DNA of 64,000 bases from an uncultured Mycoplasmatota bacterium (GTDB lineage: Bacteria; Bacillota_I; Bacilli_A; RF39; UBA660). Both the position numbers and the translations under genes were made by a program. Where the stretch lies: contig CAOKET010000003.1 in NCBI GenBank assembly GCA_948467605.1, positions 9,230-73,229 on the forward strand, in the 5' to 3' direction. Below, in pieces: positions 2,760-9,223 of this stretch. The notes beneath the pieces were generated by a model, which had not been told where the DNA came from, made no database searches, and was given only the letters and a program-made list of their open reading frames with translations. Numbering within the stretch: position 1 is the first letter of the stretch; each line of letters opens with the position of its first letter.

Positions 2760-3995
2760 ATGGAATATATAGTTGACATATTAAGAGAAAATGATGAAGG
2801 ATTAGGAATTGCTAAAATAGATAATATTACAGTATTTGTAAGTGATGCGATTAAGGGTGAAAGAGTAAAAATAGAAGTTATAGATAAGAAAAAAAATTAC
2901 TTACTAGCAAAACAAAAAGAAATATTAAAAAAATCCTCTGATAGAGTAGATACTCCATGTAAGTATTACTCTATATGTGGTGGATGCGATATAATGCATA
3001 TGAGTCATGATAAACAACTTGATTTTAAATTAAATAGAGTTAGACACATATTTAAAAAATTATATGATAAGGAAGTAAACATAGAAAAAATAGAATCGTT
3101 AAATAGTTTTAATTATAGAAATAAAGTAGTACTTAGAGTAGATAATGATATATTAGGATTTTATAAGCATGGAACAAATGAATTATTTGATTGTAATAAG
3201 TGTATTGTATCTAGTGATAATATAAATAAAACAATAGAAATATTACATAATTTTATAAATAATAATAAAAATCATAATATAAAAGAAGTAATGATAAGAC
3301 AAAACAATGACACTATTGGTAAAGTAATGGTATGTATAGATGATATTAACAAATGTTGGCAAGAAAAATTTATAAAAGAATTATCTAGTTATAAATTTAT
3401 TGAAAGCATTTATATAAATGAAAAATTAGTATATGGAAAAAATAATCTTTTAATAAATATGTTTGACTTGACATTTGAAGTGTCACCTAAATCCTTTTTT
3501 CAAATTAATGAATTGATGACTAAATGCTTATATAGTTATGTACTTGATAATATTGACAATGGTAGTAATGCCCTTGATTTATATTGTGGAACGGGTACTA
3601 TTACATCTATAATATCTAAAAAGTGCAATAAAGTAATAGGAATAGAAGTAATTAAAGATGCAATTTATAATGCTAATAAAAATATATTAAGAAATAATAT
3701 AAAAACAGTAGGATTTATGTGTGGTAAAGTAGAAGATTTAATTGATGATATAAATATTAAAAAACTAGATGTAATAGTAATGGATCCTCCTAGAAGTGGT
3801 AGTGATAAAAAAACATTAAATACTATTTGTAATATACTTCCTAAAAAGATAATTTATATTTCTTGTAATCCAGTTACCTTAGTAAGAGATTTAAAACAAT
3901 TAGATGATTATTATGATATTAAAAATATAAGATTGTTTGATATGTTTCCACAAACTCATCACGTTGAATGTGTATGCGTGTTAAATAAAAGGTAA
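2760..3995 (+). CDS. rlmD: 23S rRNA (uracil-C5)-methyltransferase RlmD/RumA with a TRAM domain and an Fe-S Cys cluster
   Basis: N-terminal TRAM-like domain, then CGGCDIMHM Cys cluster, SAM motif LDLYCGTGTI, and catalytic DPPRSG...FPQTHHVECV at the C-terminus. Confidence 0.85.
   Translation: MEYIVDILRENDEGLGIAKIDNITVFVSDAIKGERVKIEVIDKKKNYLLAKQKEILKKSSDRVDTPCKYYSICGGCDIMHMSHDKQLDFKLNRVRHIFKKLYDKEVNIEKIESLNSFNYRNKVVLRVDNDILGFYKHGTNELFDCNKCIVSSDNINKTIEILHNFINNNKNHNIKEVMIRQNNDTIGKVMVCIDDINKCWQEKFIKELSSYKFIESIYINEKLVYGKNNLLINMFDLTFEVSPKSFFQINELMTKCLYSYVLDNIDNGSNALDLYCGTGTITSIISKKCNKVIGIEVIKDAIYNANKNILRNNIKTVGFMCGKVEDLIDDINIKKLDVIVMDPPRSGSDKKTLNTICNILPKKIIYISCNPVTLVRDLKQLDDYYDIKNIRLFDMFPQTHHVECVCVLNKR
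3960..3992 (+). repeat. Direct repeat, copy 1 (actual 3' end of rlmD): tcatcacgttgaatgtgtatgcgtgttaaat
   Basis: It repeats at 5190-5222 with few mismatches. Copy 2 is in frame as H-V-E-Y-V-C-V-L-N-V-stop, i.e. a displaced rlmD C-terminus. Confidence 0.7.
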
Positions 3996-4139
3996 AACCT
4001 TATAGATAAAGGAAAAGCGGGCTATTCAGTTGAGAACAAAAAATGGTAAAAAACGAGTAAATTATTGATATTTTTCCTGATTTTTGAAAAAAATATTGTG
4101 GAGGTTGTCTGTGGAGAATATGTTCCCTAAAACCACTAT

Positions 4140-4170
4140 AACTGGTATGAGTGTATAATTAAAATTATAA
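4140..4170 (+). promoter_or_regulatory. Candidate sigma-A promoter with extended -10 (tgtgtataat) in front of the first ORF6N gene
   Basis: gagTGtgTATAATt sits about 25 nt upstream of the RBS GGAGG and the ATG at 4187. Confidence 0.4.
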
Positions 4171-4186
4171 ATGGAGGTTTTAGGTT

Positions 4187-5062
4187 ATGAATGAATTATT
4201 AGTAAAAGAAAATATAAAAATTGAAGATATGATTTTTGAAATAAGAGGAAAGCAAGTTATTTTCTCATCAGATGTTGCAAAGTTATATAAAACAGAAACA
4301 AGAATTATAAATCAAACGATTAAAAGAAATATTATGAGATTTCCTGAAACATTTTGTTTTCAACTAACTATGGAAGAGGTAATAAACTTGAGATCACAAT
4401 CTGTGACCTCAAGTTTAAGGAATGAAATAGTACATGGTGGAATAAGATATTTACCGTATGTTTTAACTGAACAAGGAATAATGATGTTATCTGGGCTTCT
4501 TAAAAGTGATGTTGCTGCCAAAGTAAATGTTCAAATTATTGACGCTTTTGTTGCTATGAGAAAATTTATTTCAAGTACAATGGTAAATCAAAGTTTTATA
4601 AATAATTTAGTTTATAAGCATGATGAAGAAATCAAGTTACTAAAAGATTCTTTTGATAAATTACAAGAAAAGGAAAAAAACAATGCAATATTCTTTGATG
4701 GACAAATTTATGATGCTTATTCATTACTATTAGATATTTTAAATAGTGCAACAAAAGAAATAATTATTATTGATAATTATGCTGGTAAAGAATTATTAGA
4801 TATTTTAAAAGAAATAAATGTTAATATAATAATTTATTCTGTAAATATGAATGAAACATTAATCAAAAAATATAAAAGCCAATACAATAATGTTGAATTA
4901 GTATTTAATAATAGATTTCATGATAGATTTATTATTATAGACAACAAATATATATATCACTGTGGTAGTAGTTTTAAAGATTTAGGAAAGAAGTGTTTTG
5001 CCATTAATAAAATAGAAAGCAACAAAATTTTAAATGGTGTTTTAGATGAAATTAGAAAGTAG
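4187..5062 (+). CDS. ORF6N (KilA-N-related) DNA-binding domain protein fused to a conserved C-terminal domain of unknown function (paralog 1)
   Basis: The N-terminus reads FEIRGKQV...SDVAKLY...NQTIKRNIMRFPETFCFQLTMEE...LPYVLTEQGIMMLSG, the ORF6N signature as I recall it. The C-terminal half carries IIIIDNYAGKELLD...FHDRFIIID...GSSFKDLGKKCFAIN, shared by all three paralogs. Confidence 0.75.
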   Translation: MNELLVKENIKIEDMIFEIRGKQVIFSSDVAKLYKTETRIINQTIKRNIMRFPETFCFQLTMEEVINLRSQSVTSSLRNEIVHGGIRYLPYVLTEQGIMMLSGLLKSDVAAKVNVQIIDAFVAMRKFISSTMVNQSFINNLVYKHDEEIKLLKDSFDKLQEKEKNNAIFFDGQIYDAYSLLLDILNSATKEIIIIDNYAGKELLDILKEINVNIIIYSVNMNETLIKKYKSQYNNVELVFNNRFHDRFIIIDNKYIYHCGSSFKDLGKKCFAINKIESNKILNGVLDEIRK

Positions 5063-5189
5063 TATATACTATAATTAATAACTACTATATATTCATAATA
5101 AACATTATATTTATATTGTTTGTGTATTACGACATAGTCAGTTGTAAACAAACATATAAAAGTCAACTATTAATAATACACAAACTTAT

Positions 5190-5222
5190 CATGTGGAATA
5201 TGTATGCGTGTTAAATGTGTGA
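5190..5222 (+). repeat. Direct repeat, copy 2: displaced remnant of the rlmD 3' end (candidate att scar)
   Basis: catgtggaatatgtatgcgtgttaaatgtgtga matches 3960-3992. Confidence 0.7.
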
Positions 5223-5278
5223 TAAAACTTTATATGATAGGAACAGAGAAACTGTTGTATAATATAGATTAATATTTA

Positions 5279-5731
5279 ATGGAGGATAATATGGAAGATT
5301 TAAAAATAAGTATTGAAAAAGAAAATAATGATTTTTTTAGAAAATGGATTATAGAAGAATGGAAACACCATAATACAGTTGATTCGATATATCAACTAAA
5401 AATAATAAAACCAGAAGACTTAACTTTTCAAAAAAATGAAGAATATTATAAAATTATATGCAATGATGAAATGGTTGGATTTTTTGGAATAAAAAATTAT
5501 GAAAAAGAACTATATCTATATAGATTTTTTATTGATGAAAAATATCGAAATAAAGGAATTGGAACAATAGTATTAGGAAAGATTATTGATATAGCAAAAG
5601 AACAAAATAAGGATATGACATTAGAAGTAATTGGAGAGAATATTGCAAGGGATTTGTATGAAAGATTAGGATTTAAAACTCATTATAGAAAGATGGTATT
5701 AAAAATCAATGACAATATATATGAAAATTAG
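5279..5731 (+). CDS. GNAT family N-acetyltransferase
   Basis: Motif A reads ...DEKYRNKGIGTIVLGKIIDIAKE..., followed by ...YERLGFK.... Length is 150 aa. Confidence 0.75.
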   Translation: MEDNMEDLKISIEKENNDFFRKWIIEEWKHHNTVDSIYQLKIIKPEDLTFQKNEEYYKIICNDEMVGFFGIKNYEKELYLYRFFIDEKYRNKGIGTIVLGKIIDIAKEQNKDMTLEVIGENIARDLYERLGFKTHYRKMVLKINDNIYEN

Positions 5732-5775
5732 TAAAAATATGTATGATATAGCCAGTTTGATTGTAATATAAAATA

Positions 5776-6294
5776 ATGAATATGAGGAGAAAGTTTATGA
5801 ATATTAGAAGGAAAAAAATAACAGACTGTGAGGTATGGGTTGACATTAATATTAAAAGTTGGAATGATAATTTAAAAGGAATTGTATCTGATAGAGTATT
5901 AAAAATAATTTCAGATAATAGAGATTCTAGGATTGAAAGAGATATTAACAATTTTAAAATAGATGATTGGAATTATGTTTTAGAAGAAAATGATAATGTT
6001 GTTGGGATACTAAAAATAAAACAATCAGACAGAAAAGATTATGAAAATTGTGCTGAAGTGCAAGTTTTATATTTATATACTAATCAAAAAGGAAAGGGAT
6101 ATGGTAAGTGCTTGATTAATAAAGCGTTTGAAGTCTTAAAAGATAAAGGATATAAAAAGGTTGTTATTGGTTGTCTTGAAGGTAATCCTTCTAATGAGTT
6201 CTATAAACATATTGGAGGCAAATTTATAAGGCAAGAACCTTGGGATATTTTTGGCGAGCATTATGTAGAGAATATATATGAATACAATATATAA
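5776..6294 (+). CDS. GNAT family N-acetyltransferase (the start could be the downstream Met at 5797)
   Basis: ...YTNQKGKGYGKCLINKAFEVLKDKGYKKVVIGCLEGNPSNEFYKHIGG... is a typical GNAT motif A/B. Confidence 0.65.
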   Translation: MNMRRKFMNIRRKKITDCEVWVDINIKSWNDNLKGIVSDRVLKIISDNRDSRIERDINNFKIDDWNYVLEENDNVVGILKIKQSDRKDYENCAEVQVLYLYTNQKGKGYGKCLINKAFEVLKDKGYKKVVIGCLEGNPSNEFYKHIGGKFIRQEPWDIFGEHYVENIYEYNI

Positions 6295-6375
6295 TAGTTA
6301 TAATTTATAAAAAGTATTTATAAGAAAAAAACATATGTTAAGATATATATGAGATAAATATATAATAAGAATTTA

Positions 6376-6560
6376 AAACTAATTGAAATAGAATCTCCTA
6401 TTTGATAAAATAAAGAAGTATTAATTAACTTGCCATGTATTGATACTTTTACAATTTAGACGATAATTTATATTTTTAGGCAAGGAAAATATATCTATTC
6501 GGGATATACCTATATATTAAGGGTATATCTTTTTTTATTTAGTGGAGGGATGATAATAAT
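6376..6560 (+). repeat. ~185 bp leader repeat, copy A (upstream of ORF6N paralog 2), containing a hairpin plus T-run
   Basis: By eye about 90-95% identical to 7461-7633. It contains GATATACC-N11-GGTATATC followed by TTTTTTT, about 20 nt before the RBS. Confidence 0.75.
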
Positions 6561-7454
6561 ATGAATGAAATTGTTGTAAATGAAAAAGAAAATATTAGTA
6601 ATAAGATTTATGAAATAAGGGGAATTCATGTAATATTAGATAGTGATTTAGCAATTCTTTATAAGTGCAATAACGGAACAAAAGATATAAATAAGGCGGT
6701 AAAAAGAAATATTAATAGATTTCCTGATGATTTTTATTTTGAATTGACTAAAGAAGAAGTAAAAATGTTAACTTCAAGGTTCCATTTTGGAACCATGAAC
6801 AAATCAAATAATTTACGTGGATATAATTTAAAATATTTACCCCATGCATTTACAGAGCAAGGAGTTGCTATGCTTGCATCAGTATTACATACAAGTATAG
6901 CAGAAGAAGTAAGTATAAATATAATGAGAACATTTGTAGCAATGAGAAAATATATATCAAATGATTTATATAAAAACAATAATATACTAATAAATCATGA
7001 GAATAGATTATTAAAATTAGAGGAAACATTTGATAAGATGCAAGTAAATAAAAAAATAAGTACAATATTTTACAATGGTCAAATATATGATGCCTATTCG
7101 ATATTAATGAGCATATTAAATAGTGCAAAAGAGGAAATTATTATAATAGATAATTATGCGGGAAAAGAACTTTTAGATGTATTAAAGAATATTGATAAAA
7201 AGATATTAATAATATCAAAAAATATAGATGATATATTAATAAAAAAGTATAAAGAACAATATAGCAATGTAGAATTTAAAAAACTTGATATTTTTCATGA
7301 TAGGTTTATAATAATAGATAGAAAAGTGTTATATAATTTTGGTACATCTTTAAAAGATTTAGGTAAAAAGTGTTTTGCGATAAATGAAATGGAGTCTTGT
7401 GAAATATTAGATGTTTTATTGAAAAAAATATTAGATAGAGATGGCCGCTTTTAA
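6561..7454 (+). CDS. ORF6N domain fusion protein (paralog 2)
   Basis: The N-terminus reads ...YEIRGIHVILDSDLAILYK...NKAVKRNINRFPDDFYFELTKEE...LPHAFTEQGVAMLAS.... The 3' ~455 bp (6941-7394) is nearly identical to 8017-8468. Confidence 0.75.
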   Translation: MNEIVVNEKENISNKIYEIRGIHVILDSDLAILYKCNNGTKDINKAVKRNINRFPDDFYFELTKEEVKMLTSRFHFGTMNKSNNLRGYNLKYLPHAFTEQGVAMLASVLHTSIAEEVSINIMRTFVAMRKYISNDLYKNNNILINHENRLLKLEETFDKMQVNKKISTIFYNGQIYDAYSILMSILNSAKEEIIIIDNYAGKELLDVLKNIDKKILIISKNIDDILIKKYKEQYSNVEFKKLDIFHDRFIIIDRKVLYNFGTSLKDLGKKCFAINEMESCEILDVLLKKILDRDGRF

Positions 7455-7460
7455 CAAAAA

Positions 7461-7633
7461 AAACTAATTGAAATAGAATCTCTTTTTTGATAAAATAAAG
7501 AAGTATTAATTAACTTGCCATGTGTTGATACTTTTACAATTTAGACGATAATTTATATTTTTAGGCAGGAAAAATATATCTATTCGGGGTATACCTATAT
7601 ATTAAAGGTATATCTTTTTTTATTTAAGGAAGG
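7461..7633 (+). repeat. Leader repeat, copy B (upstream of ORF6N paralog 3)
   Basis: Near-identical to 6376-6560, with the same hairpin (GGTATACC...GGTATATC) and T-run. Confidence 0.75.
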
Positions 7634-7642
7634 ATGATGAAA

Positions 7643-8515
7643 ATGAATGCAATTATTATAGATGAAAAAGAAAATATTAGTAGTAGAATTTATCAAATAA
7701 GAGGAGTACAAGTGATGTTATCTTCTGATATTGCTAAGTTATACGAAGTTGAAACAAAAGTATTAAATCAAACAATAAAAAGAAATATTAATAGATTTCC
7801 TGAAACATTTTGTTTTCAGTTAACAAAAGAAGAGATAATCAATCTATCTTTAAGGTCACAATTTGTGACCTTAAACAGTAAAGATAATATGAAAGGCCAA
7901 CATTATAAATATTTACCTTATGTTTTAACTGAACAGGGTATAATGATGTTATCTGGATTATTAAAAAGTGAAATTGCAGCTAAAGTTAATATTCAAATTA
8001 TTGAAGCATTTGTAACAATGAGAAAATATATATCAAATGATTTATATAAAAATAATAATATACTAATAAATCATGAGAATAGATTATTAAAACTAGAGGA
8101 AACATTTGATAAGATGCAAGTAAATAAAAAAATAAGTACAATATTCTATAATGGTCAAATATATGATGCATATTCAATATTAATAAGTATCTTAAATAAT
8201 GCAAAAAAAGAAATAATTATAATAGACAACTATGCGGGAAAAGAACTTTTAGATGTATTAAAGAATATTGATAAAAAGATATTAATAATATCAAAAAATA
8301 TAGATGATATATTAATAAAAAAGTATAAAGAACAATATAGCAATGTAGAATTTAAAAAACTTGATATTTTTCATGATAGGTTTATAATAATAGATAGAAA
8401 AGTGTTATATAATTTTGGTACATCTTTAAAAGATTTAGGTAAAAAGTGTTTTGCAATAAATGAAATGGAATGTGATAGTATATTAATCAGCATATTAGAA
8501 AAATTAGATGATTAG
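7643..8515 (+). CDS. ORF6N domain fusion protein (paralog 3; the ORF track starts at 7634, but the ATG at 7643 has proper RBS spacing)
   Basis: The N-terminal module resembles paralog 1 (...RFPETFCFQLTKEE...LPYVLTEQGIMMLSGLLKS...). The C-terminal half is nearly identical to paralog 2 at the DNA level, so the gene is mosaic. Confidence 0.75.
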   Translation: MNAIIIDEKENISSRIYQIRGVQVMLSSDIAKLYEVETKVLNQTIKRNINRFPETFCFQLTKEEIINLSLRSQFVTLNSKDNMKGQHYKYLPYVLTEQGIMMLSGLLKSEIAAKVNIQIIEAFVTMRKYISNDLYKNNNILINHENRLLKLEETFDKMQVNKKISTIFYNGQIYDAYSILISILNNAKKEIIIIDNYAGKELLDVLKNIDKKILIISKNIDDILIKKYKEQYSNVEFKKLDIFHDRFIIIDRKVLYNFGTSLKDLGKKCFAINEMECDSILISILEKLDD

Positions 8516-8545
8516 GTTATAAAAAACTTGTAAGGTGGATTTGTT

Positions 8546-9223
8546 ATGAAAGATATTAAAAAGGTAACAGCAATAATTTTGGCTTCAGGAAATAGTACAA
8601 GATTTGGGAAAAATAGGAATAAAAACTTTGAAATAATAGATGGGAAAAGTGTATTAGTATATAGTTTAAATGAATTTGATAAGAATAAATATATAGATAA
8701 TATAGTAATTGCATGTAAACAATCAGAAATTAAAGAAGTTAAAAACATAATAGGAAATGAGAAACTCTCCAAGCACATAAATATAGTTGTAGGAGGTAAT
8801 TCCAGAAAAGAATCGGTATATAATTGCTTAAAAAATACAAACTCTGATATTGTAGTTATACATGATGGTGCAAGGCCTTTAATTAAACAAGAATATATTA
8901 ATAAATGTGTTGAAAATATTAGTGAAATTAAAGGGGTTACTATTGGTGTAAAATCAAAAGATACAATAAAAATAACCGATGAAAATAACATTGTTATTGG
9001 AACAACTAATAGAAGTAATACATGGATAATTCAAACACCACAGGCATTTGATAGAAAAATTTTGTTACAAGCACACGAGAAATATAAAGGTGATGTAACG
9101 GATGACTGTATGTTGCTTGAAGAATATGGTCATAAAGTTAAAATACTTGAAGGAGATTATACTAACGTAAAAATTACTACATATGAGGATTTAGAAATTA
9201 TAAGAGAATATTTAAAAAAATAG
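8546..9223 (+). CDS. ispD: 2-C-methyl-D-erythritol 4-phosphate cytidylyltransferase
   Basis: The N-terminus VTAIILASGNSTRFG is the IspD signature. Length 225 aa. Confidence 0.85.
   Translation: MKDIKKVTAIILASGNSTRFGKNRNKNFEIIDGKSVLVYSLNEFDKNKYIDNIVIACKQSEIKEVKNIIGNEKLSKHINIVVGGNSRKESVYNCLKNTNSDIVVIHDGARPLIKQEYINKCVENISEIKGVTIGVKSKDTIKITDENNIVIGTTNRSNTWIIQTPQAFDRKILLQAHEKYKGDVTDDCMLLEEYGHKVKILEGDYTNVKITTYEDLEIIREYLKK

Follow-up and report, generated by a model that had tools for sequence, protein, structure and literature searches.

Two neighbouring genes of an uncultured Mycoplasmatota bacterium, here called P2 and P3, form a mosaic in which near-identical blocks alternate with strongly diverged ones, and this mosaic was made by recombination or gene conversion. 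Both lie in a 64,000-nucleotide stretch of contig CAOKET010000003.1 (the window, to which all coordinates refer unless another contig is named), within the interval that separates rlmD (2760-3995) from ispD (8546-9223) and that carries five genes, all on the + strand: P1 (4187..5062), two GNAT acetyltransferase genes (5279-5731 and 5776-6294; Pfam Acetyltransf_1), P2 (6561..7454) and P3 (7634..8515). The interval forms a small islet composed of single-gene cassettes, of which P1, P2 and P3 encode members of the candidate defence family PDC-S05; these three are the only copies in the window. The explanation proposed here, to which a probability of roughly 0.75 is given, is that P2 and P3 are old paralogs encoding ORF6N-PLD defence candidates, between which patchy gene conversion has acted.

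The P2/P3 mosaic

The mosaic was measured with a three-way alignment read in sliding windows, a base-by-base alignment of P2 and P3, and a block table in which synonymous (dS) and nonsynonymous (dN) divergence are Nei-Gojobori estimates. Upstream of the genes, the leader block (6376-6541 in P2, 7461-7626 in P3) is 95.8% identical in DNA, with 7 differences in 166 positions, and identity falls to 82.5% over the ribosome binding site (RBS) and the first ~21 codons, and to 62.6% over the N-modules (6625-6932 and ~7705-8008), which share 50% of their protein sequence and have a dS of 1.15; the unconverted P2 module (6625..6932, + strand) is of a rarer N-type in the family. Downstream of the N-modules lies a shared 3' block (6933-7393 against 8009-8469), comprising the N/linker junction, the helical linker and the PLD-like domain, with 17 differences in 461 positions. 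These are unevenly placed, since the junction and linker (6933-7069) are 97.8% identical (dS of the linker 0.09), an 86-nt island (7070-7155, homologous to 8146-8231) is 84.9% identical with a dS of 1.08 and a dN of 0.05, and the rest of the C-domain (7156-7393) is 99.6% identical (dS 0.10), with one difference and an identical run of 224 nt. The tail, which is to say the last ~15-20 codons (7394-7454 in P2, where it is unconverted), drops to 42.6% identity (dS 0.73).

The 224-nt run is the longest between the two genes and compares with a maximum of 80 nt in 20000 permutations of the 186 P2/P3 differences. The converted tracts, with a dS of 0.09-0.10, stand against 1.08-1.15 in the N-module and the island, a roughly tenfold contrast with sharp breakpoints, and because the contrast lies in synonymous sites it points to recombination and not to selection. 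The shared blocks themselves differ unevenly (4.2%, 2.2% and 0.4%), which indicates several events of different ages. An initial annotation, made from the letters of the sequence, had described a near-identical leader and 3' half around diverged N-modules, and the computed alignments reproduce this at essentially the same positions; uniform divergence along the gene pair, the outcome that it had named as refuting, is not seen. Its remark that the P3 N-module resembles that of P1 (~65% amino acid identity by eye) also stands, at a computed 61% (dN 0.22, dS 0.93) as compared with 50% to P2, while a recent link between the P3 and P1 modules is not supported by that same dS, both genes carrying the N-type of the family majority. 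In the N-module and the island alike, the parts that escaped conversion, P1 is consistently closer to P3 than to P2, in keeping with P2-type patches having been written over a P3 backbone.

Since both the tail and the 86-nt island are old, the shared parts are read as converted patches on two long-diverged genes, and the annotation's ~1.1 kb cassette duplication with a swapped N-module does not account for them. P2 and P3 would be long-diverged paralogs or separate acquisitions that now stand head to tail; as direct repeats they would undergo gene conversion of RecA type, by which patches are copied repeatedly and in both directions. The promoter with its leader RNA, the linker and the larger part of the PLD-like domain would have been made alike in this way, and conversion would stop where similarity is too low for exchange, namely at the ORF6N module, at the last ~15-20 codons and, so far, at the 86-nt island; selection for two different heads may also contribute. 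The outcome would be two different putative DNA-reading heads under a common regulatory leader and on a common enzymatic or dimerising half. Relatives elsewhere agree with a long separate history: the P2 orthologs P0068 and P0024 both agree with it in N-type, linker and C-type, and P0068 agrees in the type of the tail too, while the nearest relative found for the P3 N-module, P0004, belongs to another genome, is 83% identical and has a different C-type. All three have the same leader upstream, so that each lineage appears to have had the leader and a complete gene before the two met. Of the 7381 pairs of family members compared, none goes further than P2/P3 in combining a similar C-module with a different N-module.

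Strain variation bears directly on the process. A contig from another sample, L077, is colinear with window positions 5359-8058, from the two GNAT genes through leader, P2 and the second leader into P3, and its sample also holds an rlmD-P1 contig 99.9% identical to the window. L077 departs from the window at 12 positions, all 12 of them on sites that distinguish the paralogs. Eleven lie in the P2 C block (6977, 7017 and 7109-7154) and carry the P3 base, and the twelfth, at 8015 in P3, carries the P2 base. The island of this strain is part-converted, with P3 bases at 7109-7154 and P2 bases kept at 7070-7100; the P2-type base at 7100 is separated by 8 nt from a P3-type one at 7109, a spacing that a switch of de Bruijn paths cannot explain. 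Such a pattern marks conversion that is still going on and runs both ways. The two strains do not differ in their N-modules, and the C block is what varies. The strain-to-strain survey suggested by the annotation thus does find variation at this locus, at the P2/P3 paralog sites and in the C block, with the N-modules unchanged. In the same way, the recombination or gene conversion that it supposed is real, recent and ongoing, as the dS contrast and L077 show, and the direction of its effect has to be revised, in that it homogenises the shared parts instead of diversifying the heads.

A second tandem pair was observed in another genome, in L015, where two adjoining open reading frames (ORFs; 5998-6414 and 6407-7261) have different N-types and nearly identical first ~30 codons, that is, a homogenised 5' end. 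The first of them consists of an ORF6N domain and the C-terminal tail, linker and PLD domain being deleted, and abuts the full-length member.

ORF6N heads and a PLD-fold half

The three proteins share one layout, in which ORF6N stands at the N-terminus and is joined by a helical linker to a PLD-fold domain at the C-terminus, and all match the PADLOC PDC-S05 model PDLC04869 over their full length (residues ~2-291; E 2e-90, 4e-85 and 4.5e-89, the first of these for P1). ORF6N (PF10543), which Pfam groups among the DNA-binding domains of the KilA-N group, is found in all three with 98.8, 99.2 and 105.4 bits against a Pfam cut-off of 27.8. P1 has 291 aa (ORF6N E 2e-28) and P2 has 297 aa, with ORF6N at nt 6600-6884 and the HxR motif described below starting at H246 (nt 7296); in P3 the ORF6N domain covers ~7685-7954, the PLD-like domain ~8135-8473 and the motif 8372-8425. 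The true start of P3 is probably ATG 7643 and not ATG 7634, judging from the sequence around them: the latter, which opens the longest P3 ORF, abuts the RBS, and the former stands at a normal distance from the RBS, in line with the starts of P1 and P2, and would give 290 aa, the form in which the protein stands in the databases (P0001). The annotation's reading of the N-module as a putative DNA-binding ORF6N domain before a preserved C-terminal effector half agrees with these assignments, the half in question having an enzyme-like PLD fold.

That fold was recognised by modelling P3 with AlphaFold2 on 27 homologs. The model has an overall pLDDT of 69, and of mostly 74-88 over its alpha/beta C-domain, and for that domain a fold search leads to the PLD fold. 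It carries a variant PLD signature, F-H-D-R-F-x3-D-x4-Y-x2-G-x-S-x-K-D (or H-x-R-x4-D-x7-G-x-S-x-K), which departs from the canonical HxK(x)4D(x)6GSxN in having R for K and one extra residue of spacing. No variation occurs in the HxR-type motif across the 123 family members that were aligned, nor across eight distant homologs, and the invariance of H, R, D, G, S and K suggests an active site. By analogy with BfiI and NgoAVII, the C-terminal half would be a phosphodiesterase of PLD type that requires dimerisation and works under a DNA-binding head, and the ORF6N-PLD proteins are predicted nucleases with a predicted anti-phage function. Searched alone, the C-domain gives 2589 clusters at 50% identity and follows ORF6N in 9 of 10 sampled architectures. 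A search of NCBIfam returned only a sub-threshold VPA1262 fragment over the motif, and the only sequence match in the PDB, to pokeweed antiviral protein (E 0.005), which spanned the domain boundary, was judged spurious.

With regard to function, one PDC-S05 representative from a cold seep is reported to protect Escherichia coli against T7, T5 and T4 and to cut the plating of T7 and T5 about 1000-fold (bioRxiv 10.1101/2024.09.26.614923). In the papers searched, no description was found of a PLD-fold/HxR domain, of a leader RNA or of conversion between paralogs. Relatives of the PDC-S05 type occur as lone genes in varied genomic contexts, and none of 28 related genome loci is syntenic with the window. 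Some relatives of ~410 aa (P0138, P0150 and P0173) have two tandem ORF6N domains before one PLD-like domain, an arrangement whose sequence suggests that paired heads are functional in the PDC-S05-type family.

The leader RNA and the P1 cassette

P2 and P3 are each preceded by a leader in which a sigma-70 promoter is followed by the strand CUUGCC, an invariant 16-nt core, a 9-11-bp hairpin, an 8-11-bp terminator stem with its U-run, the RBS and the start codon. In the first copy (6376..6560, + strand; covariance model (CM) match of 111.6 bits) a promoter scan places the -35 at 6383-6388 and a TG-extended -10 at 6406-6411, and the RNA would begin at ~6418; CUUGCC (6429-6434) pairs as a pseudoknot with the loop GGCAAG (6479-6484) of the hairpin at 6469-6493, the core ACAAUUUAGACGAUAA lies at 6451-6466, and the terminator stem (6503-6529) and U-run (6530-6536) precede the RBS and ATG 6561. 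The second copy (7461..7633, + strand; 95.8% identical to the first, CM match of 111.3 bits) has its RNA at ~7503-7621, its core at 7536-7551, its pseudoknot strands at 7514-7519 and 7564-7569 and its terminator at 7588-7621. The RNA instances of the window are therefore 6418-6536 and 7503-7621, and others lie in L018 (5868-5990, with the promoter TTGACT-17-TATAAT), L020 (5714-5836), L024 (304-423), L078 (3864-3982), L080 (146-264), L033 (1129-1240, - strand), L034 (3019-3134) and L035 (6784-6899, - strand). Neither the leader CM nor a leader hidden Markov model (HMM) has a match upstream of P1, which is thus without the structured leader.

The CM was built from the hairpin alone, and the support for the helices comes from pair counts and a CM-derived alignment. 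Over the 11 instances that it recovered, the hairpin is paired in 98.7% of cells, against 38-54% with slid partners, and five two-sided pair changes compare with 0.9 in shuffles (0/500). The pseudoknot, which lay outside the search model, is 100% paired and has two compensatory pairs (CUUGUC/GACAAG and UUUGCC/GGCAAA), and the terminator stems, which show many covariations, are paired in 80 of 80 cells. A terminator scan that allowed loops of at most 8 nt found none in the leader, because the loop of its terminator is 11 nt. Rfam 15 holds no family for the leader, scans of 3800-8800 and of the leader alone giving only noise, and BLAST of the leader found no match in plasmid or phage collections. 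An attC/integron site was considered and rejected, as the leader lacks both a long imperfect palindrome and R'/R'' cores, and the 30 matches of its 16-mer in viral contigs were all due to chance, none having the flanking motif.

The genes downstream are of several kinds. The leader precedes distant ORF6N-PLD genes in L020, L024 and L018, whose proteins are ~48-52% identical to P3, a Bro-N/PDC-S13 gene in L034 and at the syntenic locus L035, and a restriction-enzyme-like gene in L033; a pattern scan of metagenomes recovered three loci only, all with other gene types. At L035 (6527-6857, - strand; syntenic to L034 from uppS to an ispH-like gene) the leader is kept and the Bro-N/PDC-S13 gene seems truncated or lost, no ORF of at least 80 aa lying downstream of it. 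The leader would act in cis as an attenuator RNA, presumably through its terminator; an anti-terminator pairing is weakly suggested by eye. A bolder proposal, more doubtful than not, is that this ~120-nt leader represents a new riboswitch-like class of attenuators for anti-phage genes, which would gate ORF6N-PLD, Bro-N and restriction-enzyme-like genes of gut Bacillota on one common signal, conversion keeping both paralogs under that switch and their linker and PLD halves identical so that two-head heterodimers could form. The two-ORF6N relatives of ~410 aa give a hint that paired heads are useful.

At the other end of the islet, P1 belongs to a cassette (4111..5114, + strand) made of its own extended -10 promoter, the gene and ~50 nt of 3' flank, which is 95.5% identical over 1005 nt to L069 7925-8927. 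The cassette directly follows rlmD in both genomes, and the rlmD protein of L069 is just 36% identical to that of the window. From these alignments the cassette is taken to be horizontally shared and to have been transferred separately from P2/P3. The window rlmD (2760..3995, + strand; Pfam TRAM and tRNA_U5-meth_tr, a 23S rRNA (uracil-5) methyltransferase-like gene) is the left border of the islet, and ispD (8546..9223, + strand; Pfam IspD, E 5e-55) the right one. A repeat search showed that the true rlmD 3' end (3949..4004) recurs as a degenerate direct repeat of 56 nt at 5179..5234, encoding QTYHVEYVCVLNV* (82% identity, blastn E 7e-7). This duplicated end on the far side of the cassette resembles att sites, with no recombinase present; no such duplication was found beside the P1-like cassette of L069.

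Just before the repeated end stands a 65-nt element (5121..5185) that is 88% identical to positions 8-72 of the unrelated contig L080, where it lies upstream of the P0024 leader and is again followed by a stretch like the rlmD end; from this recurrence it may mark the edge of a cassette or a place where recombination occurs. The lineage represented by L069 has a P1-type gene between rlmD and LiaF in L069 and a P2-type gene there in L078. The occurrence of P1-type or P2-type genes next to rlmD in several genomes points to the region after rlmD as a recurrent landing site for cassettes that lack a recombinase. In this spore-forming lineage the rlmD-to-LiaF-like interval is variable (L078 428-8796 against L069 6695-11385), and that of L078 holds, besides the P2-type gene, lipase, glyoxalase, HTH and Ada-like genes.

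Competing explanations and known systems

The mosaic could instead have begun as a recent tandem duplication of a ~1.08-kb cassette, followed by replacement of one N-module from a P1-like or foreign donor, whereby specificity would be diversified. The copy spacing of 1076-1085 nt and the near identity of the leader and of the greater part of the 3' half speak for this history, and exchange of modules does happen in the family, where the N- and C-modules correlate moderately (Spearman 0.62) and one C-type occurs with at least four N-types. It would nevertheless require separate replacements of the tail and of the 86-nt island (dS 1.08). With a dS of 0.93 P1 does not qualify as the donor, the shared blocks have diverged to different degrees, and between strains the C block changes and the N-module does not, so that this course of events is considered unlikely. 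Much less credit still is given to programmed switching of specificity, of the shufflon or phase-variable hsdS type, in which a recombinase would move N-modules between expression sites. A variable module between constant flanks does recall such systems, and the annotation had drawn the comparison, which fails on several grounds. Among the ORFs of 1-14 kb (ABC-F, OGG-like, CapA-like, rlmD, P1, two GNATs, P2, P3, ispD, metallophosphoesterase, NUDIX, a 619-aa ORF and a queA-like ORF) no recombinase was seen, the 619-aa ORF having had no domain search and being, like the queA-like ORF, judged by eye; the only inverted repeats bounding the modules are AT-rich, 30-32 nt long and 70-75% complementary, which is the level of chance, and the real repeats are direct. 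P2 and P3 are both complete with their own promoters, no silent or partial cassette was found at the locus, and six independent contigs show one order, a weak test with short-read data. Five predicted P2/P3 hybrid proteins were absent from ~15 billion sequences by exact look-up, which is likewise weak with short-read data; an exact look-up of P2 missed it through a quirk of the index, although the identical P0129 is listed as a cluster member. Nothing indicates a programmed generator of diversity, and the N-modules are identical between strains.

It could also be supposed that near-identical repeats were mis-joined in the metagenome-assembled genome and produced false chimeric genes, and there are indeed short-read contigs that end within the leader repeats (at 6430, 6524, 7458 and 7617), as true repeats would lead one to expect. 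Every whole gene, including the N/C junction, is nonetheless found at 99.9-100% identity in contigs of other samples (P1 and the GNATs in L030 and L031, P2 in L032, P3 through ispD and beyond in L001), a P2-identical sequence is present as cluster member P0129, and L077 covers GNAT2, P2, leader and P3 in one contig; as independent contigs reproduce the arrangement, it is not an assembly chimera of this record, and the chance of such an artefact is put close to nil. A different objection concerns function, namely that the genes are not for defence and encode prophage-derived anti-repressors or Rha-like regulators, with the C-domain as a non-catalytic module for ligand binding or dimerisation. 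The N-domain does match the PHROG anti-repressor and Rha families, and the motif has R for K. Those matches are limited to the N-domain, however, no phage genes surround any copy, the motif residues are invariant in 123 of 123 members, the PDC-S05 matches are full-length, and a restriction-enzyme-like gene and a PDC-S13 gene stand downstream of the common leader as well; such a role is therefore regarded as improbable.

Several points weigh against the preferred explanation by conversion between old ORF6N-PLD paralogs. The distinction between backbone and patch is one of parsimony, and a duplication with three replacements needs an equal number of steps; the strain evidence for ongoing conversion is one metagenome contig at 2.2x coverage. 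On the protein side, the C-domain scores 16.5 bits with PLDc_2, under the Pfam cut-off of 27, R stands in place of the K of PLD enzymes, non-catalytic PLD folds (FAM83, TrmB and MITD1) are among the top fold matches, and the only PDC-S05 member reported to be protective is described by a Virulence_RhuM domain alone (bioRxiv 10.1101/2024.09.26.614923).

If the explanation by conversion holds, an ordinary process, gene conversion between tandem paralogs, has acted here on a little-known candidate defence family, and its selectivity, which leaves an identical leader and enzymatic half with different sensing heads, would amount to a machinery-free widening of recognition on one chassis. PDC-S05 gains a testable hypothesis, that of a dimeric, ORF6N-targeted phosphodiesterase of PLD type whose motif is an HxR variant. 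Of greater interest among the outcomes are this PLD-fold/HxR assignment, the uncatalogued leader RNA and the rlmD-associated cassette. The leader, common to three unrelated kinds of defence gene, may outweigh the original finding and, if it senses a signal, would offer a way into the question of how such genes are turned on, while a P1 cassette after rlmD in two distant genomes suggests an unrecognised mobility of recombinase-less single-gene cassettes.

Among known systems, a close parallel for the mosaic is concerted evolution by gene conversion, of which the bacterial tuf genes and rRNA operons are examples. The likeness lies in near-identical tracts with sharp borders inside older diverged genes, in strain polymorphisms that fall exactly on paralog-distinguishing sites and in the fact that no dedicated machinery is required; the difference is that conversion of P2/P3 is confined to the leader and the enzymatic half, two different heads being kept. 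Shufflons and hsdS loci also set a variable recognition module between constant blocks, but the islet is without their inverted repeats, adjacent tyrosine recombinase, partial or silent copies and alternative arrangements. As for PDC-S05 itself, the three proteins match PDLC04869 end to end and the genes, as in that family, occur singly in varied contexts; the family is, however, only a candidate, and its reportedly protective member, described by Virulence_RhuM only, may be of a different subtype. BfiI and NgoAVII, which join a PLD nuclease to a DNA-binding domain (Nuc, NucT and Zucchini being the minimal enzymes), are the proposed functional analogues, although they have the canonical H-x-K-x4-D-x6-G-S-x-N in place of the variant signature with its sub-threshold PLDc_2 score, and a C-terminal B3-like DNA-binding domain where P1, P2 and P3 have an N-terminal ORF6N. 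Finally, the leader resembles terminator-type riboswitches and attenuators in its order of promoter, structured domain (a 6-bp pseudoknot and the invariant 16-nt core), terminator, RBS and gene, and in the covariation of all three helices, and it differs from them in having no Rfam 15 match and in standing before three unrelated kinds of defence candidate and not before metabolic or transport genes.

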